From positions 196,567 through 260,566 of the forward strand of contig AWSN01000001.1 of NCBI GenBank assembly GCA_000505065.1: a stretch of 64,000 nt of DNA, in the 5' to 3' direction. The notes beneath the pieces were generated by a model. It was not told the DNA's origin and did no database searches. It worked only from the letters and a program-made list of their open reading frames with translations. The position numbers and the translations under genes were made by a program. Source of the stretch: Parcubacteria bacterium RAAC4_OD1_1. Its GTDB lineage: Bacteria; Patescibacteriota; Minisyncoccia; Phycocordibacterales; UBA9973. Positions 1 to 52,400 of this stretch are shown here, one piece after another (position 1 is the stretch's first letter; each line of letters starts with the position of its first letter).

Positions 1-1120
1 TCCATGTAGATGGAATAAATTGAGAAGGACCCATAGCTCCACCCCAGCCTGGTACACCCTCTATAGGGCAAGATACTCTTGTATTGTATGGATCAATTCC
101 TAATTTTTTAGTAATAGTTAAAAATGGGGGAACATCTCTTGTTGGGCTCATACCATTTTTAAATATTTTACCAGTATTCATTCCTCTACTTTCTCCGGTT
201 TGTGAATCATTTAGATAGCAAAGTCCAACATTTTTTCCAATTCCTGTTTCTTGTTTAAGTATTCCAAGAATAAAAGCAGTTCGGACTCCAGTTTTTGAAG
301 ATGCATATTCTGCATATTTAACAGCATCACCAAAAGGTATTCCTCCACCAGAAACTCCCCCAGCAAGCTCAAAAAGTCTCGCTCTTATTTTTGTGGCTTC
401 GGCTTGTCTTTCTGCTATAACCTTAGAATATTCTACTTCTTTGTTTTTGCTAATAGAAAGAAGTTTTTGTTTTTCAGCTTCGCTTAATTCAACTTTTTTC
501 TTTGCATTTTCTAATTCAACCTTTGTATCTGTTTCTTTATTTTTCTTTTCTTCTAAACTTTTTCTTTCTTCTTCAGTAAGAGTTTTGACACCCCTTATTT
601 CATCCATAGAATTTTGTATTCCTTCTTTAATAGATGAAAAAGTAGCAAGATCACTATAAGCTTCTGATACGGACTCTTGAGAAAGCATAATAGAAAAAAT
701 TGATTTATTATCAAGCAATCTTTCTTTTCTTATAAGTTGAGCCAAAGATTCTTTTTCTTTTTCTATTTTTGAATTTAGAGATTGAATTTGTTTACTTTTT
801 TCTGTTATTTCACCTCCTAGTTTTTTTATTGTTAGATTTTTTGCTTGTATATCTAGTTTTGCTTTGTTTATTTGAGTGGTAAGAATTGAAATATCTCTTG
901 ATAAAGACGCTGATTGTCCTTTTTGTCCAGCAAGCTCTTTTTCTTTTTGAACTATTTCTTTTTCAAGTTGAATAAGCTCTTTTTCAAGTTTGGCTTTATC
1001 TATCTCTGCTGTTTCCAGAGCTTGATTAGCAGCTTCAGTTTTTATGTTTAAAAACACAAAACCACTTAAAAAAACTATAAACAAAATAAAAAATAAATAT
1101 AATTTAAATTTATACTGCAT
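1..1120 (-). CDS. Partial CDS (C-terminus beyond window start): N-terminal TM + long coiled-coil + lytic murein transglycosylase (MltB-like) domain
   Basis: Minus-strand ATG at 1120..1118 with open frame to position 1. Translation MQYKFKLYLFFILFIVFLSGF... then coiled-coil. Near window start it reads ...IEGVPGWGGAMGPSQFIPSTW, matching the MltB-family motif (GAMG..QF.PSTW). Not in the ORF track because there is no in-window stop. Confidence 0.6.
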   Translation of the reverse strand, partial: MQYKFKLYLFFILFIVFLSGFVFLNIKTEAANQALETAEIDKAKLEKELIQLEKEIVQKEKELAGQKGQSASLSRDISILTTQINKAKLDIQAKNLTIKKLGGEITEKSKQIQSLNSKIEKEKESLAQLIRKERLLDNKSIFSIMLSQESVSEAYSDLATFSSIKEGIQNSMDEIRGVKTLTEEERKSLEEKKNKETDTKVELENAKKKVELSEAEKQKLLSISKNKEVEYSKVIAERQAEATKIRARLFELAGGVSGGGIPFGDAVKYAEYASSKTGVRTAFILGILKQETGIGKNVGLCYLNDSQTGESRGMNTGKIFKNGMSPTRDVPPFLTITKKLGIDPYNTRVSCPIEGVPGWGGAMGPSQFIPSTW

Positions 1121-2299: not shown

Positions 2300-2327
2300 G
2301 CTCCCCACTTGGGACGAAGTGGGAACC
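2300..2327 (+). repeat. Hairpin repeat R1 (GCTCCCCACTTGGGACGAAGTGGGAACC)
   Basis: Stem CCCACTT/AAGTGGG with loop GGGACG. First of six same-orientation copies in 2300..6660. Confidence 0.8.
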
Positions 2328-2363
2328 TTTTTGAGTAATAAAGAAAATATTGAATCCCGCATA

Positions 2364-2391
2364 TTGACAAATTCTATAAATATTATAGAAT
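2364..2391 (+). promoter_or_regulatory. Sigma70-like promoter for the 2472 gene
   Basis: TTGACA-N16-TAGAAT, followed by the ACTATACTCCTT motif shared with the other island promoters. Confidence 0.5.
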
Positions 2392-2471
2392 GATGAAAAA
2401 TATAAATCAGGGACTATACTCCTTGTTTTACATCAGCTTAAAATTTCTTTCACATTTAAAAAAAATAAAAT

Positions 2472-3197
2472 ATGACAACATTTGATTTTAACGACAATCA
2501 ACCTGAGTTTAGAGCTCGAGTTTTTGATGGAGACAAAAGTGTAAAAACAGAAAGACCCTATGAAATTTTTGGTAAAACAAAAAAATCAAAAGGAACAACT
2601 TTTTTGGATATGGAATGTGCCTGCGGTGCAACTGATTGCGTAAGTAGGATAAGCTTTTACTATAGTGGATTAAATCACTATTGCAACTCAAGAAATCTTG
2701 GCAGTGATACACAGATTAATATTAATCCTTCTCATAAAGAAGAAAATGGTAGGGCAAATAATGTAATGTGGGATCCGACTGATGAAAATGTTTCTGAATT
2801 TATTAATTTTTCAGAAACTGTACGAGAAGCAATTGCTTTCAAACAAAAGTTACTAAATGGTCTTTACGCAGAGTTACAGGTAAGAATTAAGGGAATTGAT
2901 TATTATGGTGAAGTACAACTGATTGTTCGTAAGGATGAAACAGATATGCTTTTTTATCTTTTTGAGATTCCTAATGTTTTTCCAAAAGTTCCATTGCTTA
3001 ACGAGGCGAAAACTTATCTTGAATGTTTAGGATTGGTTGCTACGTTACCAGCTGAAATAGATACCAGTAAAATAAAAAATGATTACGCTGATATGGCAAA
3101 TCCTTTTTTTAAACCTATCATTGAATGGGTTAAGTTGCTTGGAGAAGAAAATCAGATGGAACTTCAGATCAAAAACATTTGGGTAATACCTGAATAG
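2472..3197 (+). CDS. Hypothetical protein (241 aa)
   Basis: Full ORF in a hairpin-repeat-flanked cassette. No recognisable motif. Confidence 0.5.
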   Translation: MTTFDFNDNQPEFRARVFDGDKSVKTERPYEIFGKTKKSKGTTFLDMECACGATDCVSRISFYYSGLNHYCNSRNLGSDTQININPSHKEENGRANNVMWDPTDENVSEFINFSETVREAIAFKQKLLNGLYAELQVRIKGIDYYGEVQLIVRKDETDMLFYLFEIPNVFPKVPLLNEAKTYLECLGLVATLPAEIDTSKIKNDYADMANPFFKPIIEWVKLLGEENQMELQIKNIWVIPE

Positions 3198-3300
3198 TTT
3201 AGCAAATACCTCCCTATCATTTTTTGATAAGGGGGTATTTTTGAAAATTAAAAATATTATTTTAATACAAAAATCCTTTTTTTAAAAGGAGAATTTATTT

Positions 3301-3328
3301 GCTCCGAACTTGGGACGATGTTGGAACC
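3301..3328 (+). repeat. Hairpin repeat R2 (degenerate copy)
   Basis: GCTCCGAACTTGGGACGATGTTGGAACC matches the R-family consensus with 5 mismatches that disrupt the stem. Confidence 0.6.
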
Positions 3329-3485
3329 AGAATAGGACAAATAGAAAACCGCTAGTGATAGAGGTTTTCTATGCAGCTAGCGGCTGATTTACCGTTTTTA
3401 ATTGTTGAATACTTGCTCCAAGGGTAAAAGACTTTTAATGGCTTTGATTTTCTCTTGCCACTTTAAATTAAATCATTTTTTTAAA

Positions 3486-3749
3486 TTATCTTCTTTCAAG
3501 GTTTTTTTTGAAAGACTCAGCAAGAGAAGGTTTTTCTTCTCCGTTTTCACTTAAACACCAAACAAATTCTACTTCTGAACTTCTTTTTAGCGAAATTTCA
3601 GAAATAAGTTTTGCTCTGGTTTGTTCGTTATCGGGACCATAGATCTTGTATACATTCCTGTTTTTGACAGGATAAGTATCATCATCTATTCCTTCACCAC
3701 CAACAAAACCAATTTTAAAGATTGAAACAATCCACCAATAATTTTTCAT
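3486..3749 (-). CDS. Hypothetical small protein (87 aa)
   Basis: ORF preceded on the minus strand by TTGACA-N17-TAATGT (3788..3816). Confidence 0.4.
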   Translation of the reverse strand: MKNYWWIVSIFKIGFVGGEGIDDDTYPVKNRNVYKIYGPDNEQTRAKLISEISLKRSSEVEFVWCLSENGEEKPSLAESFKKNLERR

Positions 3750-3787
3750 CTTTTATGAGTTTAAAATTGTTTATACTTTTTTTCTTC

Positions 3788-3816
3788 ACATTACATTTAA
3801 ATCACTATTTTGTCAA
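3788..3816 (-). promoter_or_regulatory. Sigma70-like promoter for the 3486..3749 gene
   Basis: Minus strand reads TTGACAAAATAGTGATTTAAATGTAATGT. Confidence 0.45.
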
Positions 3817-3851
3817 ATAAGAAATCCCCCTCTACTAGAGGGAATTTACTG

Positions 3852-3879
3852 GCTCCCCACTTGGGACGAAGTGGGAACC
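3852..3879 (+). repeat. Hairpin repeat R3
   Basis: GCTCCCCACTTGGGACGAAGTGGGAACC, a perfect 7-bp stem. Preceded by the palindrome CCCTCTAcTAGAGGG. Confidence 0.8.
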
Positions 3880-4000
3880 TTAATGGTTAATGATAAGGAT
3901 AAAATTAAAAATTAAGGCCCAAACTTGGAATAATATTCAAAAGTTGTTTAGCAACAAAAAAAATAGTCTTGAAAGTATAAATACCATCAAGACTATATTT

Positions 4001-4627
4001 TTAATTAATGATTACAACACCATAAGAATAGGTAGGAAATCCTGTATTAGAATAATCATATTTCCACACCATCTCTTTTTTATCCCAATAGATAACTGGA
4101 ACTTCAGTCCAAGCGGCATCAAAAGGACAATAACAGATAGTACCTAAAAAAAGTATGTATGAATATTCTTTCCACTCCTCAGGAATAAGATCGGGGTGAA
4201 CTAAGAGATATTCGGCAACTCTTGCGTTAGCTAAAGATTTATTTGATATCTTTTTATAAGATGGATATGATCCATCAAATTCATCACATAATTCTTTATA
4301 TAACTCACAAGGACGGTCAAACTCTTTTGATGCAAATAAACTAATCTTGCTTAAATCCCATTTCAATAAACCGTTAGAAATGTGATTCATTACTGCATGA
4401 TGTGTCGTTGATTTTGGTTTTGTTCGCGTATCTATAATATGAATAGCTGATAATTCTTCTTTGCTTATTACACACGAATTATCCCTTATCACATCAAGAA
4501 CACTGGTTAAAATATTCCCCTCAGACAATGTTTTAATATCTCCATTTGTCCAACCATTACGACGAAAAGCCATTTTTAATTCATGAGCCTGGCTAACATC
4601 GAGCATTAAATCATCATTTGTACTCAT
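4001..4627 (-). CDS. Hypothetical protein (208 aa)
   Basis: ORF with an AGGAGA Shine-Dalgarno 8 nt upstream of the ATG and its own promoter module. Confidence 0.5.
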   Translation of the reverse strand: MSTNDDLMLDVSQAHELKMAFRRNGWTNGDIKTLSEGNILTSVLDVIRDNSCVISKEELSAIHIIDTRTKPKSTTHHAVMNHISNGLLKWDLSKISLFASKEFDRPCELYKELCDEFDGSYPSYKKISNKSLANARVAEYLLVHPDLIPEEWKEYSYILFLGTICYCPFDAAWTEVPVIYWDKKEMVWKYDYSNTGFPTYSYGVVIIN

Positions 4628-4799
4628 TGTTAAATCTCCTATATTTTTGCAACATATTTCTTTATTTGTTTTTTAGAAAATTGTTGCGAGTTAGTGCTGT
4701 TCTCAAATCGTTGTTGATTCTGCCGCAGCTAATAATAATCAATAATTAATTACTATTAGCCGAGGCAGAAGAATTTTAAAGAACTATAATACTCCTTAC

Positions 4800-4828
4800 A
4801 GTATAGCATATTATAACCTATTTGTCAA
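4800..4828 (-). promoter_or_regulatory. Near-consensus sigma70 promoter plus palindromic operator-like module
   Basis: Minus strand reads TTGACA-N17-TATACT, then GTAAGGAGTATTATAGTTCTTT. The palindrome CTATAaTACT..AGTATAG overlaps the -10. Confidence 0.55.
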
Positions 4829-4835
4829 TGTTAAA

Positions 4836-4858
4836 TACCCTTATAAAATAAGGGTATT
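4836..4858. other. Inverted repeat ATACCCTTAT-AAAA-ATAAGGGTAT
   Basis: 10-bp perfect arms between promoter and hairpin repeat R4. Possible terminator or insulator. Confidence 0.4.
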
Positions 4859-4865
4859 ATTACTG

Positions 4866-4893
4866 GCTCCCCACATGGGACGAAGTGGGAACC
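4866..4893 (+). repeat. Hairpin repeat R4
   Basis: GCTCCCCACATGGGACGAAGTGGGAACC, flanked by TACTG..CTTACTGG. Confidence 0.8.
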
Positions 4894-4970
4894 TTACTGG
4901 GAGAGTATAAATAGAAAAATCCACCTCAGTATAATGAAGGGATTTCCCTTCCACTAAAGTGGATTAATTT

Positions 4971-5429
4971 TTAATCGCCAGAAAGATCAGTGTATCCGTA
5001 TTCTTTTATTTTTCTCTTAATAAAATTTGATCCTTTCCTTACGCAAACTTCAATTGGCTTTGCTTTGTCTCTTGCTGTCAATCTGAATTTTGTACCATCT
5101 TTAAACTCTAAGACAACAGATGGTTCACCGTGTGTTGTTATAGCTGGTAAGGATAATTTTTTATTAAAAGGAATTATTGCATCCCCGATAATAAAATTAC
5201 TTTCCTCAATGTGGCATTTGATCCACCACTGAAAATCAGCAAAACCAACCGCGGGGTTTTCGTTCCACCCAGATATCATTGGAATACAAACATCATCAAC
5301 ATTTGATTTTTGATTTGTTAGTGTTAGTGCAGCAATATGCATGCGTAATTCATTTCCTATAGGTAATTGAGGATAAAGATACTCGATGTTACCAATAAAA
5401 ATTTCCTTTTCTAAAATTTTTGTTTTCAT
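4971..5429 (-). CDS. Hypothetical protein (152 aa)
   Basis: Full ORF in a repeat-flanked cassette. Confidence 0.5.
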   Translation of the reverse strand: MKTKILEKEIFIGNIEYLYPQLPIGNELRMHIAALTLTNQKSNVDDVCIPMISGWNENPAVGFADFQWWIKCHIEESNFIIGDAIIPFNKKLSLPAITTHGEPSVVLEFKDGTKFRLTARDKAKPIEVCVRKGSNFIKRKIKEYGYTDLSGD

Positions 5430-5543
5430 CTTGTTATTATTTAATTTTGTTTAACATTTAGTGAATTATCTACACCTCCAACAAGAAGCAAAGATAATCC
5501 ACCAAATACAATTAAATAATCAAAATATCAAAGAACTATACTA

Positions 5544-5572
5544 CTCTTTATAGTATAGCATAATAGAACCTA
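5544..5572 (-). promoter_or_regulatory. Near-consensus sigma70 promoter plus palindromic module
   Basis: Minus strand reads TTGACA-N17-TATACT, then ATAAAGAGTAGTATAGTTCTTTG. The palindrome ACTATACT..AGTATAGT spans the -10 and +1. Confidence 0.55.
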
Positions 5573-5585
5573 TTTGTCAATATCT

Positions 5586-5613
5586 GCTCCCCACATGGGA
5601 CGAAGTGGGAACC
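5586..5613 (+). repeat. Hairpin repeat R5
   Basis: GCTCCCCACATGGGACGAAGTGGGAACC, identical to R4. Confidence 0.8.
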
Positions 5614-5640
5614 TTAATAAAGGATTATAAATGATGTATA

Positions 5641-6576
5641 ATGATAATTATGATTGAAGCCCATAATATAATAAAACTAGAAGGAAATTCATTTGAGAGA
5701 GCGATTCGAAACGATTTTGGTTTTGACATTAATAATTCAGAGAAAATACAAAAAGGATACCAAAGCCAAGTATATAAGGCAAACCTAGATAATGAAGTTG
5801 TCTTTATAAGAATAAATAAAGATCCAAATGTTTTTGAAGTTGAACAGTTGGCCTATAAAATCTTTGAAGAAAAAGGGGTACCAGTTCCAAAAATTATTTC
5901 TTACAAAGAAAAACCAACATCAATAGGACAACCAACTATAATTATGACCTCCGTTGTAGGTAAAACTATCAGTGAAGCTAATCCTTCTCAAGAACAAAAT
6001 GATGTTATCTACGAAAACTTAGGAGAAATATTAAGAAAAATTAACGAAACTAAATTAGAAGGTTTTGGAGAATTAACAGTAGAAAATAACACCTTGGTTG
6101 GGAAATTTCCAAGTTGGAATGAATATTGTAAATCACAAAATGAACGCCACATTAAAGCTCTTAATTTTTGTGTGGAAAATAATTTTATAAAAAATGAAGA
6201 TGCAGATAAGATAAAAAGTATTTATAAAGAAATTGAGCAATTAAATTTTGGAAAAGCATCTCTTTTGCATAAAGATATACATCAAGGTCATTTTTTTGTT
6301 CAAGGATCAGATGTTACAGGAGTTATTGATTTAGGGTCATTAATGGCTGGTGACCCACGATATGATATTGCGATGAGTTTAGTTTTCCAAAACAAAAGAC
6401 AACAAAAACATTTTTTAAAAGGTTATAATAGTGATTTAGCTTATGATCCTATGGTTAATAAATATCTGATAACTATATTAATCAGAAAATTATATTTTAG
6501 AAGTAAACAAGAAATTAAAGGTAATGTTGATATTTTACTTTCGCCTCTAAAAGATTTACTAATTAAATTAATATAA
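5641..6576 (+). CDS. Aminoglycoside/choline-kinase (APH) family phosphotransferase
   Basis: Kinase-like motifs: beta-3 Lys in FIRINKD, catalytic-loop HKDIHQGHFFV, DLG, and GDPRYDIAMSL resembling APH GDPxYDLA. Confidence 0.6.
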   Translation: MIIMIEAHNIIKLEGNSFERAIRNDFGFDINNSEKIQKGYQSQVYKANLDNEVVFIRINKDPNVFEVEQLAYKIFEEKGVPVPKIISYKEKPTSIGQPTIIMTSVVGKTISEANPSQEQNDVIYENLGEILRKINETKLEGFGELTVENNTLVGKFPSWNEYCKSQNERHIKALNFCVENNFIKNEDADKIKSIYKEIEQLNFGKASLLHKDIHQGHFFVQGSDVTGVIDLGSLMAGDPRYDIAMSLVFQNKRQQKHFLKGYNSDLAYDPMVNKYLITILIRKLYFRSKQEIKGNVDILLSPLKDLLIKLI

Positions 6577-6635
6577 ATTCTAATTTAAAGAAAGATAGTA
6601 AAAATAACCTTAATTAAATAAGGTTAAATTTACTG

Positions 6636-6660
6636 GCTCCCCTAACAGGGTTCGAACTTT
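6636..6660 (+). repeat. Hairpin repeat R6 (divergent/degenerate)
   Basis: TACTGGCTCCCCTAACAGGGTTCGAAC shares the TACTGGCTCCCC prefix with R3/R4 but diverges afterwards. Confidence 0.4.
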
Positions 6661-6667
6661 TTGGTTT

Positions 6668-7549
6668 TTATAGGTTATTAAACAACTTTAAACGGTTATA
6701 AACTACTTCTTCTATAGCACCTACTGCATCCTTAAGTATTTTATAAGGAGCGATTTCGTTGGGATTTTCTTTTATATATTTTTCTAAGGCTTCTTTATAA
6801 GCGACTCTGATTTCTGTATTGATATGAATTATAGATATACCAGCTAGAATTGCATTTTTAAAATCTTCATCACTAATACCTGATCCACCATGTAATACAA
6901 GTGGTACACCTGCACTTTGTCTTATTTCTTTAATTCTTTCTATGTTTAATTTTGGATTTCCACCTTTTACCATACCATGAATATTACCTACTGATGGTGC
7001 AAGTAAATTTATACCAGTGTGTTCGACAAAGTATTTTGCATCTTCTATTTTTGTCATAGTTTCTTCACTGACGCCTTCGGGAATTTCTTCTAAGAGTTTT
7101 GAGGATGTGCCAATGAATCCTATCTCAGCTTCTACGAGTACATCTCTACCCTCTTTTGCATTTATATCTCTCGCATACTCTACGCATTTTTTTGTAAGAG
7201 CTATATTTTCTTCTAATGGTAATTTTACAGCATCTATGATGACGGTATCGAATCCATCATCTATACAAGCTTTAATTGATTCAAAACTATAATGATGATC
7301 CGCATTTAAAAATATTGGGAAATTATCTTTCTCTCGTGCATTCTTTACAAGAGCAGATACTTCGTCTCTTCCAATAAATTCTTCTTCCCCTTCTGACACT
7401 CCTATGATAACTGGGACATTAAGTTTCTTAGCTGCATTATAAATACCATGAAAGGCCTCAATATTTGAAATATTAAAATGCCCAATTGCTATTTTTTTCT
7501 TTTCTGCTTCTTTTATATATTCTCTTAAGGTTTTTATAATCATATACAA
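6668..7549 (-). CDS. fba: Class II fructose/ketose-bisphosphate aldolase
   Basis: AIGHFNISNIE and LHGGSG motifs. 293 aa, class II FBA/TBP aldolase family. Confidence 0.85.
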   Translation of the reverse strand: MYMIIKTLREYIKEAEKKKIAIGHFNISNIEAFHGIYNAAKKLNVPVIIGVSEGEEEFIGRDEVSALVKNAREKDNFPIFLNADHHYSFESIKACIDDGFDTVIIDAVKLPLEENIALTKKCVEYARDINAKEGRDVLVEAEIGFIGTSSKLLEEIPEGVSEETMTKIEDAKYFVEHTGINLLAPSVGNIHGMVKGGNPKLNIERIKEIRQSAGVPLVLHGGSGISDEDFKNAILAGISIIHINTEIRVAYKEALEKYIKENPNEIAPYKILKDAVGAIEEVVYNRLKLFNNL

Positions 7550-7579
7550 ACATTATAACATATATGGTATAATAAAAAA

Positions 7580-8572
7580 ATGATGGATGAAAAAATTGAT
7601 TTATTAGCAATTGGAGATATTGCGACAGAACCTTTTATTAAAATTAAAGAAGCAAAAGAAGAATGTGAGCCTAATGGTCATTGCAATCTTTGTCTTTCTT
7701 TTAGAGATAAGATCCCCTATGAAGAAGCAACTATTTGTTATGCAGTTGGTAATAGCCCCAATGTTTCAATTGGAGCTAGTCGGCTTGGACTCAATACTTA
7801 TCTTGTTTCTTATGTGGGTAACGATAGAGATGGTAGTGAAAATATAAATTTTTTAATAAACGAAAATGTAAAGACTGATTATATTCATATCGCAGATGGA
7901 CTGTCCACAAATTATCATTATGTTTTGTGGTACAACAAAGATAGAACGATTCTTGTTAAACATACAGATTTTCCATATGTTTTGCCATCCGATCTAAAAG
8001 AGCCTAAATGGATGTATCTTTCTTCTTTATCATCAAATTCTATTGAATATCACAAAACTATATCTCTATATTTAAAGAATCACGAAGAAGTAAAATTTGC
8101 TTTTCAACCTGGGACTTTTCAAATAAAATTTGGTTATGAGGAATTAAAAGAAATATATGAAAGAACTGATGTATTTTTTTGTAATAAAGAAGAATATCAA
8201 AAAATTTTAGAAACAAAGGAATCTGATGAAGTAAAATTGATGAAAATGATGCATAAAATTGGTCCCAAAATGTTAATTCTGACAAATTCTAAAGATGGAG
8301 CCTGGGCATATAATGGAGAAAACATTTGGTATATTAAAGCTCTTCCAGGGGATCCATTTGAAATGACTGGTGCCGGAGATGCTTTTGCTTCTGGTTTTAT
8401 TTCTTCTCTTATTATGGGGAATAATATAGAAACATCACTTCTTTATGGTTCTATAAATGCTAGATCTGTTATCGAAGAGATAGGTCCACATGAGGGGCTT
8501 TTAACAAAAGAAGAAATTGAAGAAGCAATAGAGAAAATTCCTGTTAAATTTAAAGCTAATAAAATTAATTAA
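7580..8572 (+). CDS. PfkB-family carbohydrate/nucleoside kinase
   Basis: Ribokinase-like fold with C-terminal GAGDAFASGF motif. Extended -10 TGGTATAAT at 7565..7573. Confidence 0.75.
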   Translation: MMDEKIDLLAIGDIATEPFIKIKEAKEECEPNGHCNLCLSFRDKIPYEEATICYAVGNSPNVSIGASRLGLNTYLVSYVGNDRDGSENINFLINENVKTDYIHIADGLSTNYHYVLWYNKDRTILVKHTDFPYVLPSDLKEPKWMYLSSLSSNSIEYHKTISLYLKNHEEVKFAFQPGTFQIKFGYEELKEIYERTDVFFCNKEEYQKILETKESDEVKLMKMMHKIGPKMLILTNSKDGAWAYNGENIWYIKALPGDPFEMTGAGDAFASGFISSLIMGNNIETSLLYGSINARSVIEEIGPHEGLLTKEEIEEAIEKIPVKFKANKIN

Positions 8573-28755: not shown

Positions 28756-30633
28756 CTACTTCATCACCCCCCTCGTCATTTTACCCACGATACCATCACC
28801 TACAAGATTATTTGCAAGTTGGAATTTAATAACTGCTTGTTTGGTTTTGAGACCAAAGTAGGTAGTTTCGTTGTTTAATGATCCTGGTCCAGTTAGAGAT
28901 ACAGGATAATTGTGAGTATTTAGATATGATTGTAATTCTTTGACATCATTACCTATCATTTTGTATTTAAGGGTTCTTGTTTTATATTTGATTGTATTAA
29001 TGGGGCTATCTTTTTGATTTGGTGTATTAAAAGAAGTTATTACTTGATTGATTTGATTTGGATATTGTTTTAATAAATCGTTTGCTGTTTCAGTTTTTCC
29101 GATTGAAATTAAATTAATGTATCGTGATGATACAGTTGAACCAGAAGAACGACGAGGTCGTGTGGTTGAACCATTTGTTATCTCTATTGTATAGGATTTA
29201 CTATCTGTGAATGGTTCGATTGTTGATTCATCTGTCCAAGTATCACTTGCTTTGATGGTGAAAGTGTATGTTCCTGCTGTTGTTGGTGTACCGGATAATG
29301 TATCACTTGTTAGAGTTAATCCGTCTGGTAATGAACCACTTCCAACTTCATATGTGACTACCCCTTGATATCCGCTTGATTCAAAAGTTTTAGAATAAGC
29401 AGTACCTATTTCTCCATCATCTAATGAATCAGTATCTATTTTGATGAGATCAAAAATCATTATACGATTATTGTTATCATCAGCTATATATAAACGATTA
29501 TTTACATAATCATAAGCAGTTCCAGATGGAAAATTAAAATTATTTTGAGTTGTTCCATAAATAGCAGTAGTAAAATTAATTTGTCCTAAAATATTAATTG
29601 CATATTCACCATTCTCAATTGTGGTTGTATCAAAAACTAAAACACGTCCTAGCCCATCAGTAACAAATAAACGTTTATTTTCTTGATCAAAAGTTAGCCC
29701 ATAAGGACTTTCTGTACTTAAATTATATTGTGTTGTTCCTGAATCTGTAGTAGTAAAGTTTAATTGTCCTAGTACATTAATAGCATTTTCTCCGTTTTCT
29801 ATGGTTGCCATATCAAAGACCATAATACGACTATTATCTGAATCTCCCACATAAAGATAATTTCTATCAGAATCATAAGACAAACCTCCATAAGGATTAT
29901 TTAATCCATTTTGATTTGTGTTATAAGTATTTGTTGTAAAATCAGGTTGACCAAGGACATATGATGCATTCATGCCATTTGTAATATTTGAAACATTAAA
30001 AATCATTATGCGATTATTATTATAATCTCCAGCGTAAAGGCGATTATTAATTGAGTCATAAGCAAGATTAGCTGGGCCATTGAGACCATTTTGAGATGTT
30101 GCACTAGTGTTTGAGGTAAAATCAGGTTGACCAAGGACATATGATGCATTCATGCCATTGGTTATAGTTAATGTATCAAAAACTAAAATACGATTATACT
30201 CAGCAACAAATAAACGATTGTTTACTGAATCATAAGCTAACCCCCAAGGATAAGACATTTTACTTTGTGTCGTTCCAAAATCTATCGTATCAAAATCAGG
30301 TTGACCAAGGACATAGTCTGCATTGTGGTCTACAAGAGTACCATCTGTATTTAAATTGAAAACTAAAACTCTGTTATTAGATGAATCATTTACAAATAAT
30401 CTATGATGTACTGTATCTACTGCCATATCACCCTCGGGGTCATTTATAGCATTTACCCCAATAATATTCTCTGCATTATTTGCACTGCTTGTGGTCCACA
30501 CTGGTGTACCATCTATTGTATTTTGTCCAATAACATCTACAGCATTGTAAACATTAGCAAAAACATTGCTTGCGAAAGTTAATAAAAAAATTGTTAATAA
30601 AATATTTAAACCTTTTATATGTTTTATCATCAT
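28756..30633 (-). CDS. Secreted NHL-repeat protein with Ig-like domain and C-terminal peptidoglycan-binding domain
   Basis: Signal peptide. Six ~48-aa repeats (YVLGQPDFT..NGLN.P.GLAYD..NNRLYV.D..NNRIMIF, NHL-like). LPDGLTLTSDTLSGTPTTAGTYTF Ig-like segment. C-terminal PG_binding_1-like ...VGDGIVGKMT. Confidence 0.7.
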   Translation of the reverse strand: MMIKHIKGLNILLTIFLLTFASNVFANVYNAVDVIGQNTIDGTPVWTTSSANNAENIIGVNAINDPEGDMAVDTVHHRLFVNDSSNNRVLVFNLNTDGTLVDHNADYVLGQPDFDTIDFGTTQSKMSYPWGLAYDSVNNRLFVAEYNRILVFDTLTITNGMNASYVLGQPDFTSNTSATSQNGLNGPANLAYDSINNRLYAGDYNNNRIMIFNVSNITNGMNASYVLGQPDFTTNTYNTNQNGLNNPYGGLSYDSDRNYLYVGDSDNSRIMVFDMATIENGENAINVLGQLNFTTTDSGTTQYNLSTESPYGLTFDQENKRLFVTDGLGRVLVFDTTTIENGEYAINILGQINFTTAIYGTTQNNFNFPSGTAYDYVNNRLYIADDNNNRIMIFDLIKIDTDSLDDGEIGTAYSKTFESSGYQGVVTYEVGSGSLPDGLTLTSDTLSGTPTTAGTYTFTIKASDTWTDESTIEPFTDSKSYTIEITNGSTTRPRRSSGSTVSSRYINLISIGKTETANDLLKQYPNQINQVITSFNTPNQKDSPINTIKYKTRTLKYKMIGNDVKELQSYLNTHNYPVSLTGPGSLNNETTYFGLKTKQAVIKFQLANNLVGDGIVGKMTRGVMK

Positions 30634-33467: not shown

Positions 33468-33510
33468 ATGTTTAGAATTTAAAAATTAATTTCAAAAGAA
33501 CTATAGTTAT

Positions 33511-33540
33511 ATTATATCACACAAATAACCTATTTGTCAA
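33511..33540 (-). promoter_or_regulatory. Island-type promoter module (TTGACA-N18-TATAAT plus AACTATAGTTCTTT)
   Basis: Minus strand reads TTGACAAATAGGTTATTTGTGTGATATAATATAACTATAGTTCTTTTG. Same architecture as the promoters at 4800 and 5544. Confidence 0.5.
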
Positions 33541-38004: not shown

Positions 38005-39057
38005 TTATATATAATCCTGCATTGTTAGGCAATGTATCGCTCCACCGCCTATTATTAATTGAGAACAATCAATGCCAATTACTTTATGTTTTTTAAATAA
38101 TGATTGGATTATCTTCATAGCTTTTTTGTCGTTTGGGTCATTAAAAACAGACATTAAAATTACAGAATTTCCAATATAAAAATTAGCATAAGACACTGGG
38201 GCCTTCTCTCCATTTTTATAATTCATATGAGGCATTGGAAGTTTGACTAATTTAAATTTTTTACCTTTTTCATTAGTGGCTTTTTTAAACCTATTATAAT
38301 TTTCTTTCAAAATATTATAATTTTCATCTTTTTTATTATTTTCATAGGCACAGACGATAGTATTTGAGTTCACAAATCGAGCTATTTCATCTATATGCCC
38401 ATCTGTATGATCATTTGTAAGTCCATCTTTGAGCCAAATTATATTTTCAGCCCCGAGATACGCCTTTAAATAAATCTCTGTACGACTTCGATCTAAATCA
38501 GGATTCCTATTTGGATTCAAAAGGCACTGTTCTGTAGTCATAATTGTTCCCTTACCATTTGATTCTACCGCTCCACCTTCTAAAATTATTTCGGGCTTAA
38601 AAACCTCATATTTAGATTTATCTAAAATATCATTGAAAACCTTATCGTCTTTTAATAAATCCGCAAAAAATGGATCATCACCCTTACCATAAGCATTATA
38701 ATTCCATTTTACAAAAGCCAATTTATCATTTTTTTTATTAAACAAAGTTATAGGAGCATAATCCCTTACCCAAACATCTGCATAATCAGGTTTTATATAA
38801 AAAGTAATATTTTTTATATTGATTCCATAATTGATAAACAATTTTGAAATTCTCTCTTTTTCAAATTCACTTAAGATAATTAATTTTATTTTTTCACTTA
38901 CTTCTATTTTTTTTATTATCTCACAATAAGTATCTTCAATTTCACTTAAAATATTAGGGAAAGTAATATCTCCATATGGCCAAGCAAGCCAAACAGCTGA
39001 ATGCTTTTCCCATTCTGCTGGCATATAGTATCCTAGTTCTTTTGGAATTATAATCAT
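38005..39057 (-). CDS. aguA: Agmatine deiminase
   Basis: PAD_porph family. MPAEWEKHSAVWLAWPY N-terminus and GGGAIHCLTMQ catalytic-Cys C-terminus. Confidence 0.85.
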   Translation of the reverse strand: MIIIPKELGYYMPAEWEKHSAVWLAWPYGDITFPNILSEIEDTYCEIIKKIEVSEKIKLIILSEFEKERISKLFINYGINIKNITFYIKPDYADVWVRDYAPITLFNKKNDKLAFVKWNYNAYGKGDDPFFADLLKDDKVFNDILDKSKYEVFKPEIILEGGAVESNGKGTIMTTEQCLLNPNRNPDLDRSRTEIYLKAYLGAENIIWLKDGLTNDHTDGHIDEIARFVNSNTIVCAYENNKKDENYNILKENYNRFKKATNEKGKKFKLVKLPMPHMNYKNGEKAPVSYANFYIGNSVILMSVFNDPNDKKAMKIIQSLFKKHKVIGIDCSQLIIGGGAIHCLTMQDYI

Positions 39058-39073
39058 ATTGTTCTAAAGGTGG

Positions 39074-39157
39074 AACAAATTATTTTATGAAAAAATGTCT
39101 GGCACTGGCTCCCGCCCCCCTCGTCCGAGAACTTTTTCAGAGAATTTAATTTGTGTA
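39074..39157 (-). repeat. MITE-like TIR element, copy A (in the 5' leader of aguA)
   Basis: Terminal inverted repeats AACAAATTATTTTATGAAAAAATGTC ... GACTTTTTCAGAGAATTTAATTTGTGT. Core GGCACTGGCTCCCGCCCCCCTCGTCC. Ends ~17 nt before the aguA ATG. Confidence 0.7.
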
Positions 39158-39172
39158 ACTTTTTTATATTAT

Positions 39173-40036
39173 CTATTTTATCTTATCTATTATTTTTTTA
39201 TAAGTATCAGGTCTTCGATTTCTCATAAATCCCCAATCTTCGGAGATAATATCATTCATGGATAAATCCAGTGTTTGTATTATTATCTCATCTTTTTTAG
39301 AATTAGCTCTTTTGAGAACTTTACCAAAAGCATCTGTCACAAAAGATTGCCCCCAGAAATTTAAATTACCTTCTTTACCTACTCTATTTACAGCGATAAC
39401 AGGAAGACTATTAGCAATAGAATGCCCTCTCATCACTGTTTCCCATGCATCATGCCAATCTCCATCTTTTGGTTTGTTCCCTATAATATTACCTATTGCG
39501 GTAGGATAAAATATCATTTCTGTGCCTGAAAGTTTAGAAACTCTAGCTGCTTCAGGAAACCATTGATCAAAACAGATAAGTACAGTATAAGATACATCTT
39601 TGTGTTTATATAAACTATACCCATTATCCCCTTCGGCAAAATAATCCTTTTCATAAAAGCTTGGATCATGAGGTATGTGTATTTTCCTATAAGACTTTCC
39701 AATTTCTCCTTTTTCATTCAAAACTACAACCGTATTAAAATATTTTCCTGCTTTAGTTTTTTCATAAATTGGTAGAATTATAGAGCAACCATATTTTTTA
39801 GAAATTACAGAAAATGCATTTGTAGATTCCCCAGGAATAGTCTCTAAATAATCTTTTATATCCACACCTTTTTCTCTAGGAAAATACGGGGTCTTATAAA
39901 GCTCTTGCAAGCAAATAATCTCTGCTCCCTTTTTAGCGGCAGTTTCTACCATCTTTAAAGTCTTTTCTAAATTTGATTTCAAATTATTAGAAACTGAACT
40001 TTGTATTAACCCAACTTTTATTAATTTTTTTGACAT
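39173..40036 (-). CDS. aguB: N-carbamoylputrescine amidohydrolase (CN-hydrolase family)
   Basis: Nitrilase-superfamily fold. Context with aguA. 287 aa. Confidence 0.8.
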   Translation of the reverse strand: MSKKLIKVGLIQSSVSNNLKSNLEKTLKMVETAAKKGAEIICLQELYKTPYFPREKGVDIKDYLETIPGESTNAFSVISKKYGCSIILPIYEKTKAGKYFNTVVVLNEKGEIGKSYRKIHIPHDPSFYEKDYFAEGDNGYSLYKHKDVSYTVLICFDQWFPEAARVSKLSGTEMIFYPTAIGNIIGNKPKDGDWHDAWETVMRGHSIANSLPVIAVNRVGKEGNLNFWGQSFVTDAFGKVLKRANSKKDEIIIQTLDLSMNDIISEDWGFMRNRRPDTYKKIIDKIK

Positions 40037-40055
40037 ATTGTTTCCAAAAGCGAAA

Positions 40056-40137
40056 TAAATTATTTTATGAAAAAATGTCTGGCACCGGCTCCCGTCCCCT
40101 AAATCCGAGGACTTTTTTCAGAATATAATTTGTGAAG
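40056..40137 (-). repeat. MITE-like TIR element, copy B (in the 5' leader of aguB)
   Basis: Same element, ~85% identical to copy A. Ends ~19 nt before the aguB ATG. Confidence 0.7.
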
Positions 40138-40146
40138 CTTTTTGTT

Positions 40147-41349
40147 TTACGACAACCTATTTTTAAAATCTTTATAATTAAACCTTTTTACAATTTTAAT
40201 CTTTTTATCTTTACCCATTATAGCAATATTTGGAAGGTTTATACCATTAAATGTATTATTCTTCACCATTGTATAAATAGCCATATTCATAAATACAACC
40301 CTGTCTCCTATTTTAAGAGGATTTTTAAAAGCATACTCACCTATAACATCACCAGTAAGGCAAGATGGCCCTACGAGCCTATAAACATTCTCATTATCTT
40401 CACTTGGGAGCTCAGCTCCCAAGATGGTTGGAAGATATGGCATCTCTATCACATCTGGCATATGGCAAGTAGGAGAAATATCCAAAACTGCAATATTTTT
40501 ACCATTTCTAAAGATATCTATCACGCTTCCCACCAAGACGCCAGCATTGAGTGCCACAGCCTCTCCAGGCTCAAGATACACCTCTAGGTGTGGATACCTA
40601 ACCTTAAAATCTTTAATAATCTTTTTAAGTAAATCTAAATCATAATCCTCTCTTGTGATATGATGCCCACCACCAAAATTTACCCATTTCATTTTTGCAA
40701 AAAATTTACCAAATTTTTCCTCAAAGACTTTAAGAGATCTTTCAAGTGCGTCAGCATTAAGCTCGCAAAGATTATGAAAATGAAGTCCTTCTATGCCATC
40801 TAAATTATCTTCCTCAAAATTTGCTCTTGTAACTCCAAATTGAGAATTAGGTCGTGATGGGTCATACATCTCAATCTCTGATTCACTATGTTCCAAGTTC
40901 ACACGGATACCACAAGAAACCCGCTTCTTAGATTTTTCAACAATTTTTTGAAATTTATTCCATTGTGAAAATGAATTAAAAACAAGATGATCAGAATATT
41001 TTATATAATCTTTTATGTTTTCTTCTGTATAAGAAGGAGAAAATGTGTGAACTTCCTTTTTAAATTCTTCATACCCTAGACGTGCTTCATTTACCGAGCT
41101 TGCTTCACTACCAGAAAGATACTTGCGAACCAAAGGAAAAGTAGAAAACATAGAAAAACCTTTCATAGCAAGAAGTATCTTGCAACCTGTTTCTTTTTGT
41201 ACTTCATTTAGAATCTTTAAATTCTTTTCAGTATGTGGCAAAGAAACTACATAGGTTGGTGTATCTTTTAACTTACTTAATTCTTTTTCACTCCAACCTT
41301 CTTCGTTTATCCAAGGCTCAACAAACGGTTCGTTACAATTTTTTGACAT
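40147..41349 (-). CDS. nspC: Carboxynorspermidine/carboxyspermidine decarboxylase
   Basis: Fold-III PLP decarboxylase of ~400 aa with CANSDC-like N-terminus. Adjacent to the CANSDH gene. Confidence 0.75.
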   Translation of the reverse strand: MSKNCNEPFVEPWINEEGWSEKELSKLKDTPTYVVSLPHTEKNLKILNEVQKETGCKILLAMKGFSMFSTFPLVRKYLSGSEASSVNEARLGYEEFKKEVHTFSPSYTEENIKDYIKYSDHLVFNSFSQWNKFQKIVEKSKKRVSCGIRVNLEHSESEIEMYDPSRPNSQFGVTRANFEEDNLDGIEGLHFHNLCELNADALERSLKVFEEKFGKFFAKMKWVNFGGGHHITREDYDLDLLKKIIKDFKVRYPHLEVYLEPGEAVALNAGVLVGSVIDIFRNGKNIAVLDISPTCHMPDVIEMPYLPTILGAELPSEDNENVYRLVGPSCLTGDVIGEYAFKNPLKIGDRVVFMNMAIYTMVKNNTFNGINLPNIAIMGKDKKIKIVKRFNYKDFKNRLS

Positions 41350-41376: not shown

Positions 41377-43092
41377 TTAATAAATTTCATTCTGGTAGCA
41401 TTTTTCACAATATATAATCTCTGGTCTCTCTGGGGCGTAAGGGGTTTCAAATTCATTATTACATCCTTCTTTCATACACTTACGATGCCAAAGCTTAAAT
41501 GGATTCCTTTGAGATAATCTTTCATAATGCCTACAATTAGGGCAATATCTAGGCAGTGCTATATTATGACGCCTTAAAAAAGATAATTCTTCTGGCATTA
41601 TTCTATAAGCAAGGGTACATTGAGTCAATTCATTCCCGTTATTAGGGCAAGATATTATTTCATTGATAATTTCATCTTTTACATCCTTTATATGATCTGG
41701 TAAATCTTCACTTTTAATAGTTACATTGTAATTTCTTTCAATTGGTTTTCTATACAAATAACCTTCTTCAGAAATAGAATTCTTACTTTTAGGATAATAT
41801 TCTTGAGCTATGGTTTCATTGTAAGCAAATGGAGATAATTCGGGTGGAAAAAATTCACCATATTTATATACTCTACCTTTATTATCTATATATGGCATAT
41901 CTGACATATGGTCTATTATTTTGGGAATTAACTTCTCATATTCTTCTTTGGTGTATTGTTTGTTCAAGATACAATATTCACCCTTTCTAATTCCAATGCA
42001 ACCAAAAAGATTTTTTGAATTGTAACACATATAAGTATAATTTGTATCTATACTTCCATGATTTAAAACACAAAATAGATTATTAAAAGCCTTCAATCCA
42101 GAATCAACCCCTTCATACATTAAAGAAGTTCCTACTCCAAATCCATACATATCATAACTATCTTTAGCGTCGAAACCATGAATTAAATATTTTGAATCTT
42201 CTACAAGCCCATATATATCAAAACAATTTTTAATATTTTTAGAATTCAAAATAGCATCACCAACACAATCCACTGACTTTATAATCCCAGCATATTTATT
42301 TGGATAATTCAAAATAAAATTTTTATATTTATTTTTAAATTCATTCAATATCTTATAACTACCAAAATCTAGTTCCTTTTTTATTTTTTCATATTCTTCT
42401 TTTAAATATTGTTCATTTAATATACAAAATTTTTTATTTCTTAAATTTACACAACCAATACAATCTTGACAATTAATACATTCTTTAAGAAAAATAGAAT
42501 TTATTGATTGATCTGCACCAAAAGAAAAGAAAGTCTTATAAGATGAATCACAAAAAGAATCTTCATAACATTCTTCACATTTCTGAATTTTATATGTATC
42601 AAAACAATTTTTCAAACTAGAGGCACCAAGAGAATACATAGTATCTTCTGCTAAATAAGATGCGTAAACTAAATAGCAATTTTTTAAGTCTAAAGCATGA
42701 TTTACATAAGGTGAATTTATGCAATTATTATTACCTAAATTTTGAAGTGGTACTTTTGATATTAACTCTTTGAATTGCTCAAAAAATGGTTTAGAGAAAT
42801 CATATTCTTTTCCGTAATCTTTTGGATCCCATTTATCACTCCACCATATATCACGATCATAAACTTTAACATTAGCCTTTGGGTGAAACATAGTAATCAT
42901 ATTATTGCCACCAAAATCACAAATTCTCCTAAAAAGAGCTCTTTCATTTCTCCAAACCATTCTTCTTACCACCCTACACTCCGGGCAAAATGTCGGTGGA
43001 GAGACTTTTATTTTTTCATAAAATACAAAATCTTCCGGCTCAATAATAAAGTCATTTTTACAATTCTGACATTTTTTAATCTCATTTTGCAT
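41377..43092 (-). CDS. Cysteine-rich repeat protein of unknown family (571 aa) embedded in the polyamine operon
   Basis: N-terminal zinc-ribbon CQNC..x24..CPEC. Internal ~120-aa duplicated modules ending C(I/F)LN(E/K)QY(L/T)KEEYEK(I/L). C-terminal CPNC..C..GC..YCEKC. Paralog at 63034..64000. Confidence 0.6.
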   Translation of the reverse strand: MQNEIKKCQNCKNDFIIEPEDFVFYEKIKVSPPTFCPECRVVRRMVWRNERALFRRICDFGGNNMITMFHPKANVKVYDRDIWWSDKWDPKDYGKEYDFSKPFFEQFKELISKVPLQNLGNNNCINSPYVNHALDLKNCYLVYASYLAEDTMYSLGASSLKNCFDTYKIQKCEECYEDSFCDSSYKTFFSFGADQSINSIFLKECINCQDCIGCVNLRNKKFCILNEQYLKEEYEKIKKELDFGSYKILNEFKNKYKNFILNYPNKYAGIIKSVDCVGDAILNSKNIKNCFDIYGLVEDSKYLIHGFDAKDSYDMYGFGVGTSLMYEGVDSGLKAFNNLFCVLNHGSIDTNYTYMCYNSKNLFGCIGIRKGEYCILNKQYTKEEYEKLIPKIIDHMSDMPYIDNKGRVYKYGEFFPPELSPFAYNETIAQEYYPKSKNSISEEGYLYRKPIERNYNVTIKSEDLPDHIKDVKDEIINEIISCPNNGNELTQCTLAYRIMPEELSFLRRHNIALPRYCPNCRHYERLSQRNPFKLWHRKCMKEGCNNEFETPYAPERPEIIYCEKCYQNEIY

Positions 43093-45863: not shown

Positions 45864-45945
45864 TATAAAAGTTACACAAATTATATTCTGAAAAAAGTCC
45901 TCAGACGAGGGGGACGGGAGCCGGTGCCAGACATTTTTTCATAAA
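45864..45945 (+). repeat. MITE-like TIR element, copy C (in the 5' leader of asd, inverted on the + strand)
   Basis: Reverse complement matches copies A/B/D. Same orientation relative to the downstream gene. Ends ~28 nt before the asd ATG. Confidence 0.7.
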
Positions 45946-45973
45946 ATAATTTGTTTCGCTTTAAAAATTAAAG

Positions 45974-47062: not shown

Positions 47063-47752
47063 TTATCTCACTTCTAAAAAAATTTTAGGGTGATTATCAA
47101 GTATATTTGTTTTTATTTCAGGAAAAATTTCTCCTTTTTGTAATAGTCCAACAAATTCTGTTATCCTGGTTTTATAAGGGTAAACATATGCTTCAAATAA
47201 AACTCCACGGGCTTTAACTTGTACCATTAATTCTGGTAGTTCTTCTAAAATATATCTTCCAAATTTATTTATCTCATTATTATTAAATGTCCTTTTTTCT
47301 TTTGAAACCCATTCTTTTACAAAATTTTCTATATAATTTTTAAAATTAATATTTTTATCATATAAATTATATAAATATTTAACTTTCTCTTTATATTTAG
47401 AATCTGCAATATCTGACCATGTAGCATATATTATTTTTGCTTGTTCATCTTGACTAAAAGACAAACTAACCCTTTCTTTTATTTTAATAAAAAGATTCCT
47501 TCCGTACCTTATTGCAACCTCTTCTGCGTGACTATCAGACAATTTATTACGAACAGATAAATTAATCCCATGTATTGAGTCAGCAATATAAATTATTACA
47601 TACTCTTTAGTGTGCAATAATGACCATTTAACTAATTTTTCTATATTATCTATACTAAACCATTTATTACCCAAACTAATAGCTACCCCAATATTATATT
47701 TTTTGAGTTCTATATCATTTTTATGGCAACCTCTTATTTGATGTAATTCCAT
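47063..47752 (-). CDS. Cyclodipeptide synthase (CDPS) family protein
   Basis: Catalytic-Ser motif GVAISLGNKWFS (AlbC GISAGNSYFS, YvmC GISPFNSRFS). YILEELPEL (AlbC YVLAELPLF, catalytic Y/E). AYVYP..TRITEFVGLL (AlbC CYHIDTPITAFL). 229 aa. Confidence 0.6.
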   Translation of the reverse strand: MELHQIRGCHKNDIELKKYNIGVAISLGNKWFSIDNIEKLVKWSLLHTKEYVIIYIADSIHGINLSVRNKLSDSHAEEVAIRYGRNLFIKIKERVSLSFSQDEQAKIIYATWSDIADSKYKEKVKYLYNLYDKNINFKNYIENFVKEWVSKEKRTFNNNEINKFGRYILEELPELMVQVKARGVLFEAYVYPYKTRITEFVGLLQKGEIFPEIKTNILDNHPKIFLEVR

Positions 47753-52386: not shown

Positions 52387-52400
52387 ATATTTTGTAGCAA

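Follow-up and report, generated by a model that had tools for sequence, protein, structure and literature searches.

A shared promoter and boxA-like leader module in a hairpin-punctuated array of one-gene cassettes in Parcubacteria bacterium RAAC4_OD1_1

We analysed 64,000 nt of the genome of Parcubacteria bacterium RAAC4_OD1_1 (complete, 693,530 bp, from aquifer sediment); this whole stretch is called the window, and coordinates count from its position 1. Between the genes for fructose-bisphosphate aldolase (FBA) and ribosomal protein L25 lies an island of five one-gene cassettes (6657..2300, minus strand), headed by the relic of a tRNA-Asn 3' end and punctuated by short hairpin sites. Two of the cassettes share a promoter module, a third copy of which stands before a distant open reading frame (ORF) of 54 amino acids (aa). 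We favour, with moderate confidence, the view that this shared sequence is a portable expression module of small cassettes in a hairpin-punctuated array. In the feature list below, P1, P2 and P3 are the three promoter modules, R1 to R5 are the five 28-nt hairpin sites, and boxA-like denotes the GTTCTTTGA-type element of the modules. Related loci or contigs carry L-numbers (L010, L012, L021 and so on), with letters for modules within one locus (L022a, L152a-c). Transcription start sites are predictions, placed about 7 nt past the -10.

6636..6657, minus strand: T-site, GTTCGAACCCTGTTAGGGGAGC, remnant of a tRNA-Asn 3' end, heading the array
5586..6635, minus strand: cassette 1, ending in R1
5641..6576, strand opposite to the sites: gene of cassette 1, APH/fructosamine-kinase family (Pfam PF01636)
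5586..5613, minus strand: R1, GGTTCCCACTTCGTCCCATGTGGGGAGC, 28-nt hairpin site
5526..5580, minus strand: P1 module, with -35 at 5580..5575 and TG-extended -10 at 5560..5552
5558..5551 and 5543..5536, minus strand: arms of the P1 inverted repeat, CTATACTA and TAGTATAG, perfect, with a 7-nt spacer
5536..5526, minus strand: P1 boxA-like element, GTTCTTTGATA; predicted start site near 5545
4971..5525, minus strand: P1 leader (5525..5430) and 152-aa ORF (5429..4971), no Pfam match
4866..4893, minus strand: R2, 28-nt hairpin site, end of cassette 2
4774..4828, minus strand: P2 module, with -35 at 4828..4823 and -10 at 4805..4800
4784..4774, minus strand: P2 boxA-like element, GTTCTTTAAAA, an exact GYTCTTTAANA match
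4001..4773, minus strand: P2 leader and 208-aa ORF (4627..4001), no Pfam match
3852..3879, minus strand: R3, 28-nt hairpin site, end of cassette 3
3301..3851, minus strand: cassette 4, consisting of a terminator-like hairpin, a promoter, an 87-aa ORF (3749..3486), a terminator and R4
3816..3811 (TTGACA) and 3793..3788 (TAATGT), minus strand: promoter of cassette 4, of a different family, with no boxA
3328..3301, minus strand: R4, a diverged site
2300..3300, minus strand: cassette 5; its 241-aa ORF (2472..3197) is encoded on the opposite strand, behind a promoter of its own at 2364..2391 (plus strand)
2327..2300, minus strand: R5, the 28-nt site that closes cassette 5
33490..33540, minus strand: P3 module, with -35 at 33540..33535 and TGATATAAT at 33519..33511
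33501..33490, minus strand: P3 degenerate boxA-like element, GTTCTTTTGAAA
33303..33467, minus strand: 54-aa ORF driven by P3, no Pfam match

The T-site begins 10 nt past the stop of the FBA gene and retains the T-loop, T-stem, acceptor strand, G73 and C74 of a tRNA; with this relic at the head, the array counts five units, the APH gene being the first. The minus-strand repeat, GGTTCCCACTTCGTCCCAWGTGGGGAGC, is present in five direct copies within 3.3 kb and in none of the other 60 kb, and all five sites keep the same orientation despite the opposite-strand genes in cassettes 1 and 5. Most sites are preceded by an intrinsic terminator, a T-rich run and a 12-20 nt spacer, and are followed by a second terminator-like hairpin or directly by a promoter, each cassette having its own near-consensus promoter. 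The APH gene gave the one match in a Pfam scan of the five cassette proteins, leaving four without a match. The 28-nt repeat interrupts short-read assembly in this region, where Logan contigs stop at R1 and R2. An earlier note on this DNA had given an account of the island that was incomplete, in that it lacked the 28-nt repeat with its five copies, the tRNA-like site at 6657..6636 and the APH gene inside the array.

The three promoter modules have two exact sequences in common. The 14-mer TTGACAAATAGGTT occurs exactly three times in the window, always on the minus strand (5580..5567, 4828..4815 and 33540..33527), and is absent from the dinucleotide shuffles of the window that set its chance level. 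The 11-mer TATAGTTCTTT also has exactly three copies (5540..5530, 4788..4778 and 33505..33495; 0 expected) and accompanies every copy of the 14-mer, about 40-50 nt downstream. All three modules are near-consensus sigma-70 promoters in which TTGACA is separated by 17-18 nt from TGnTATACT or TGnTATAAT, the TG-extended forms being TTGACA-17-TGCTATACT (two copies) and TTGACA-18-TGATATAAT (one copy). P1 and P2, which are 752 nt apart, show 88% identity across 58 nt. These exact repeats bear out the claim of the earlier note that one near-consensus promoter stands at three places, the distant 54-aa ORF included. Its coordinates were right for the sites at 4800..4828 and 33511..33540 and 8 nt off for the one placed at 5544..5572, which is correctly 5580..5552. 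The possibility raised there, that the motif is simply the generic housekeeping promoter of this genome, finds no echo in the 64-kb window, where the 14-mer is confined to three sites. Two supposed variants of the module had to be dropped: the sequence upstream of the gene at 2472 (2364..2391, plus strand) has generic hexamers in common with it and nothing more, and that upstream of 3486..3749 (3816..3788, minus strand) is of another promoter family, with two further members in L021.

The module recurs in other genomes. An alignment of 11 copies from six contigs (the window, L015, L020, L022, L023 and L152), supplemented by three copies in L155, gives the consensus TTGAC(A/T), a 17-18-nt spacer that is variable save for its ATGC end, and TAnnnT; across the 14 modules the -10 is followed by 9-15 nt ending in (A)TAG(T/C)A and then by G(T/C)TCTTT-N-A-N-A. 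In the 11 aligned copies the conserved parts are the -35, the TG-extended -10 and the boxA-like block. The published consensus of boxA, the RNA element bound by NusB/NusE, is GYTCTTTAANA (PMC5725501). Three of its bases, G2, C5 and U6, contact NusB specifically and are critical, and position 9 can be a purine, as it is in Aquifex (PMC3177189). The sequences GTTCTTTGATA, GTTCTTTAAAA and GCTCTTTGATA match this consensus, with G2, C5 and U6 kept and a purine at position 9. In the 173 kb formed by the window and the related loci, 13 of the 22 matches to the boxA pattern lie 3-22 nt past a TTGACW-N16-19-TANNNT promoter, against 0.08 expected. The other boxA-like matches in the window have no promoter before them (8 found against 8.7 expected); by count the motif is not enriched there, and its enrichment is one of position. 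With a start about 7 nt after the -10, it would begin at +4 to +9 of the RNA.

Past the boxA-like element the leader folds into a hairpin that pairs the segment just beyond boxA with the segment just ahead of the start codon. The P1 leader forms a long hairpin of -33.6 kcal/mol (z = -5.5), and the P2 leader is also structured (-35.3 kcal/mol, z = -5.9). Between boxA and ATG, the P1 leader of the window shares 83-86% identity with those of two L152 cassettes whose products, of 93 and 159 aa, are unrelated proteins, and the homolog of the 152-aa gene in L152 itself carries another leader past boxA. This identity across unrelated ORFs shows that promoter plus leader are exchanged as a unit. The same module stands directly after a cassette boundary site in at least six other contigs, and both observations support the earlier suggestion of a portable promoter cassette moving with its genes. 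Another promoter family lies past GGAGC sites in L157 (1-190, 2506-2686 and 6508-7791) and reads TTGACAATT..TGCTATTGT, continuing with the -10-region complement CAATAGTG and then TTTTTTGA(C/T)A; it displays the same -10/+1 complementarity and a T-rich block with U in place of the boxA C.

The hairpin site is built of a 7-9 bp stem (5' TTC... / ...GGA 3') followed by GC, and reads TTCCNAC...GT(T/G)(C/G)GGAGC. The window copies can also be read as 11-6-11 over 28 nt, with arms GGTTCCCACTT and AAGTGGGGAGC around a 6-nt centre, and the left arm and centre are better conserved than the right arm. Variants in L150 and L155 keep only the 7-bp closing stem (TTCGAAC/GTTYGGA) and the GC, with loops of 10 to 46 nt, and related variants have 29-46 nt between the arms; a folded stem-loop accounts for these differences in loop size better than a duplex core would. 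At pairs 1-72 (U-A), 2-71 (Y-G) and 3-70 (C-G), followed by G73 and C74, the stem is similar to the top of the tRNA-Asn acceptor, and the whole 28-mer aligns, with small indels, to the tRNA-Asn 3' end GGTTCGATCCCTACCCACGGAGC.

A degenerate pattern located the site in 16 other Paceibacterota/Patescibacteria contigs (three GTDB Paceibacterota genomes and 13 metagenome contigs), and a profile search gave multi-copy arrays, of 2-4 or more sites, in L021, L022, L023 and L155. The window's own repeat returned 0 matches from the genome collection, of which RAAC4_OD1_1 itself is not a member. In L013, L016, L020, L021 and L152, the array is headed by a real tRNA-Asn(GTT) gene ending ...GGTTCGATCCCTACCCACGGAGC, whose last base (...GGAGC) is directly followed by the first cassette. 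The L015 array is headed by a tRNA-end relic, as is that of the window, where the relic measures 22 nt.

Comparison of cassettes between these arrays bears on the boundary. Homologous cassettes of L021 follow differing ends, ...GGGGAGC and ...TTTGGAGC, which places the boundary at or after GGAGC. The promoter region of cassette 4 in the window is homologous to L021 sequence both after the tRNA end and after an internal site, and the 3' module of that cassette (terminator plus site) recurs in L012/L017 with different sequence downstream. The scaffold L010 (sample ANAN16-1), of another population and differing at the level of strain, has the same ribosomal protein L25 gene and 241-aa cassette as the window, and an 81-aa TPR-repeat gene (L010 1-280, against window 3486-3749) replaces the 87-aa gene there; at cassette 4, only the last 7 codons, the 3' untranslated region and R4 are common to the two. 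The last three comparisons suggest that the homology of cassettes set in different contexts ends at the site. Proteins homologous to the 152-aa product (62-84% identity) are encoded in L150, L152, L154, L155 and L157, within arrays of small, mostly Pfam-less genes, and their neighbours differ from contig to contig. Those genes of the related arrays that can be annotated have accessory or toxin-type domains (Fic, zeta toxin, NYN, HD, NUDIX and SocA). Conservation of the APH cassette in L157 was considered and rejected, the protein there being merely 25% identical and not the same cassette.

Scans of viral contigs gave no lead to a phage attP or integrase, the site pattern matching only in coding TWDEVGT motifs of two phage contigs and the tRNA-end pattern being too generic (at least 120 unrelated matches). 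Rfam at curated thresholds matched tRNAs and one fluoride riboswitch in the window and related loci and nothing else, with no rRNA operon, and relaxed thresholds gave chance-level matches only (L020/L022 and window 39000..40200).

The related arrays also contain further features. The intact tRNA-Asn at the head of the L152 array is preceded, at about 70 nt, by a degenerate tRNA-like sequence (3880-3945, TCCAGAGTAGCT...TCGAGGAGC). An ORF-less 'cassette' of 125-190 nt occurs at L020 ~870-1000 (minus strand), L022 ~895-1020 and L013 ~6500-6650 and ~7480-7630, and in L025; it starts as the reverse complement of the tRNA-Asn 3' end (GCTCCGTGG...), finishes as a direct copy (...CCCTACCCACGGAGC), and has a branched, very stable fold (-56.3 kcal/mol, z = -8.4). 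The window lacks this element, which may represent either an RNA of tRNA-like form or a DNA site that folds. The L155 sites at 3031, 4379, 5077, 8649 and 11562 are each followed by a short hairpin, GGTATTACCTTTAGTAATAC, and then a promoter, which looks like a lineage-specific 5' module of cassettes. A Y1 (IS200-like) transposase gene lies 4.5 kb from the L013 array.

The favoured explanation can be put as follows. The module, a near-consensus sigma-70 promoter of the form TTGACA, 17 nt, TGnTAnnnT that leads, after some 10-15 nt, into a boxA-like element and a long leader hairpin that ends just ahead of the start codon, would belong to a subset of small, self-contained gene cassettes. A complete cassette would hold a single ORF; ahead of it would stand a promoter and leader, optionally preceded by a terminator, and behind it a terminator and a hairpin site of roughly 28 nt with GGAGC as its last bases. 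Such cassettes may enter an array, leave it and change places through site-specific recombination at this site. The primary insertion point would be tRNA-Asn, and the recombining enzyme is presumably encoded elsewhere in the genome or on another element. Once inserted, each would form an autonomous transcription unit under its own promoter. By analogy with boxA, which acts at rRNA operons and CRISPR arrays (PMC7665894), the boxA-like RNA may load NusB/S10 and allow polymerase to pass the untranslated, structured leader of 110-165 nt without premature termination. A broader proposal, which we regard as possible and advance only tentatively, is that Paceibacterota capture genes in an integron-like manner: self-expressing single-gene cassettes, with promoter, often a boxA leader, and terminator, would be inserted serially at the tRNA-Asn 3' end by a recombinase acting in trans, and the folded site used for this would imitate the acceptor stem together with G73-C74.

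Several observations weigh against this scheme. Pfam searches found no recombinase domain (PF00589 or other) in the ORFs flanking the island or in about 45 window ORFs scanned, and no recombinase gene was found adjoining any array examined, related loci included, which makes the case for mobility one of comparative anatomy. Covariation in the site stem is weak by formal measures, with 81.5% of cells pairing against 79.8% in shuffles (49 of 500 shuffles equal it), so that the folded-site reading draws mainly on the loop-size variants; a C.C mismatch falls within the stem in 15 of 21 sequences. The crossover point, which would lie after ...GGAGC, has few homology breakpoints behind it. The boxA-like match was scored on the published consensus, from which the boxA in this lineage's own rRNA leaders may differ. 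The motif has an extra T in P3 and a C at position 9 in L023, and many cassettes are without it: none of the roughly 10 cassettes of L154 has the motif, and 3 of the window's 5 lack it. No hairpin site was found near P3, and this copy with its 54-aa ORF is not demonstrably in a cassette. The 54-aa ORF is an orphan, the sole database match being itself in Parcubacteria bacterium RAAC4_OD1_1, and with its degenerate module it may be a decayed or separately recombined copy.

It is also conceivable, if unlikely, that the hairpins act at the level of RNA or structure, as tRNA-like punctuation, processing signals, insulators or terminators, or REP-like elements, in a hotspot of ordinary recombination, and that the 'boxA' is the U-rich tail of a weak terminator. 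The site does resemble an acceptor-stem minihelix plus G and C, intrinsic terminators stand 12-20 nt ahead of most sites, the -10/+1 repeat followed by TTCTTTGATATTTT has the shape of a terminator (-10.1 kcal/mol), and a Y1 transposase gene lies near the L013 array. However, that terminator-shaped hairpin is A+T-rich, and with the -10 element as its left arm it is not transcribed from this promoter, and the motif keeps a C at position 4 and GA or AA at positions 8-9, as a U-tract need not. The orientation of the sites stays constant even though the genes of cassettes 1 and 5 are inverted, unlike that of an mRNA 3' signal; the sites are clustered rather than dispersed; and, in the few comparisons made, cassettes of different genomes lose their homology at the site.

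The earlier note had further suggested that an inverted repeat across the -10 and +1 could serve as an operator. If a dimeric repressor bound there, the island genes and the 54-aa ORF would form one regulon, which we judge rather unlikely. The repeat itself is real in P1, where a perfect 8-bp inverted repeat with a 7-nt spacer covers the -10/+1 region, and 3-8 bp of complementarity between the -10 region and the segment before boxA are present in all 11 modules. The arms of P2 match at only 6/7-6/8 and the register differs in P3, in which 6 nt fewer between the -10 and TATAGTTCTTT change the geometry of the repeat and remove the spacing; P1 and P2 share arms and P3 does not. A module's own arms pair marginally better than arms crossed between modules (mean 5.2 against 4.5 bp, p = 0.035), but the excess is gone once wobble pairs are allowed (p = 0.13); like the covariation of the site stem, this result is no proof of a folded structure. 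Most of the complementarity arises from two conserved blocks, TGCTAT and ATAGTA: what is conserved is a consensus on each side (TGCTAT... / ...ATAGTA-GTTCTTTGATA), with no common half-site. Within single genomes the arms differ, as between L022a (ACAATAATAA/TTAGTATTGT) and L022b (TTCTATA/TATAGTA) or among three versions in L152, and no common operator is therefore seen. No DNA-binding regulator gene was found in or beside the island. The right half of the supposed palindrome overlaps the boxA-like GTTCTTTGATA, and this arm and its flank are better explained as a boxA-like leader element.

Integration by the host XerC/D, with the 28-nt repeat as a dif-like site in the manner of Xer-exploiting elements or the pdif modules of Acinetobacter plasmids, appears improbable. 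The 11-6-11 reading of the window sites, with the better conserved left arm and centre, would suit it, and a housekeeping enzyme would fit the lack of a dedicated recombinase nearby. GC skew is, however, negative over the 6.8 kb left of the island and likewise over the 58 kb right of it, which shows that it is not at the replication terminus, and the strands of the genes do not converge there. The 29-46 nt between arms in related variants, where only the outer 7-bp stem is kept, would hardly fit a 6-bp central region; a real tRNA-Asn 3' end stands in for the site at array heads; and the sites are all direct, whereas pdif modules alternate in orientation. As a chromosomal dif or Xer-integrated array, the locus was rejected on the GC skew and the loop-expanded variants.

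Local duplication alone, with P1 and P2 as recent paralogous copies (their identity and proximity would fit), P3 as a third copy and no wider system, is very improbable, being contradicted by the recurrence of module and site in many genomes with other genes. A CRISPR-like array was rejected as well, since the spacers would be 0.5-1 kb long and gene-bearing.

The remainder of the window holds some further features. An element of about 100 nt lies right upstream of four start codons (39062-39137, 40042-40117, 45890-45975 on the plus strand, and 52389-52464), those of the genes for agmatine deiminase, a CN-hydrolase, aspartate-semialdehyde dehydrogenase (asd) and dnaK. Its G+C-rich core, GGGGACGGGAGCCRGTGCCAGACA, is enclosed by long inverted arms rich in A+T (ACAAATTATATTCTGAAAAAAG / CATTTTTTCATAAAATAATTTGT). 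The element has no Rfam match; a small mobile element, a leader RNA and an operator common to the four genes are all conceivable. Adjoining one copy, beside dnaK, a 176-aa ORF (52625-53155, plus strand) has a PaaX central (Cas2-like) domain and a winged-helix N-terminus and is a possible regulator. A 229-aa ORF (47063-47752, minus strand) matches PF16715, the family of cyclodipeptide synthases, at 32 bits where the cut-off is 27 bits, a match that seemed notable in so small a genome. A 625-aa ORF (28756..30633) contains internal repeats with a period of about 180 nt (window 29480-30330), and a 225-nt segment is 77% identical between two ORFs 21.6 kb apart (41783-42007 and 63437-63661).

Among known systems, the array invites comparison with integrons. 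As in an integron, there is one gene per cassette, an imperfect palindrome at the 3' end of each, uniformly direct sites and a distinct site at the head; the site has a conserved stem and a variable loop, and the cassette proteins are mostly unknown or accessory. Unlike in an integron, no integrase was found beside the array and the head site is a tRNA-Asn 3' end. The sites are 26-62 nt long and end in GGAGC, without the RYYYAAC/GTTRRRY boxes of attC, and the boundary is not G|TT. Each cassette has its own promoter, leader and terminator, in contrast to promoterless cassettes under a common Pc. A canonical integron was accordingly rejected as a candidate, there being no intI, no R boxes and promoters within the cassettes.

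The tycheposons of Prochlorococcus are tRNA-side islands built by repeated insertion (bioRxiv 10.1101/2020.12.28.424599), and resemble the array in growing next to a tRNA gene, in having tRNA-derived repeats between cargo and in residing in streamlined host genomes. They differ in bearing a tyrosine or serine recombinase and replication genes, in spanning several kb and in having plain partial-tRNA flanks, whereas the units described here are of 0.55-1.05 kb with a single gene and no recombinase domain found, and their internal sites are a conserved self-complementary derivative rather than a copy of the tRNA end. More generally, of the features of tRNA-targeted islands the array has insertion at the tRNA 3' end, and an element-borne integrase was not found.

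A likeness to the HUH systems (IS200/IS605 TnpA, REP/RAYT) lies in the short, imperfect, direct hairpins that bound a DNA segment, in a probable boundary fixed a few nt 3' of the hairpin foot, and in an insertion that would adjoin a short sequence also carried by the resident right end. Here, however, there is no conserved left-end hairpin and the copies are clustered, not genome-wide; no Y1_Tnp domain was found among the window ORFs scanned, and the one detected is that near L013.

The boxA leaders of rrn operons, lambda nut sites, suhB and CRISPR arrays (PMC5725501, PMC7665894, PMC3177189) are matched here over the 11 nt of GYTCTTTAANA, G2/C5/U6 included. They are matched in position too, since the motif comes soon after a strong promoter, near the front of a long RNA that is structured and untranslated, which parallels boxA ahead of untranslated CRISPR arrays. 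Unlike them, the present boxA-like elements sit on presumably mobile protein-coding cassettes of a candidate-phyla-radiation bacterium. The literature searched held no description of such cassette arrays in candidate-phyla-radiation bacteria, and nothing relevant on mobile elements or Nus factors of RAAC4_OD1_1.

The arrangement works like an integron array and like tRNA-anchored islands, yet it falls outside both by the features that define them, and in the promoter/boxA module a known signal stands in a setting new for it. In the tiny genomes of candidate-phyla-radiation bacteria, few mobile elements have been recognised. The scheme favoured here, if true, would supply a concrete and searchable mechanism for their flexible gene pool, together with a search rule for accessory and defence genes in metagenome-assembled genomes, namely to look downstream of tRNA-Asn for hairpins ending ...GGAGC. 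It would also be a new case, to our knowledge, of boxA-type antitermination signals travelling on mobile protein-coding genes.

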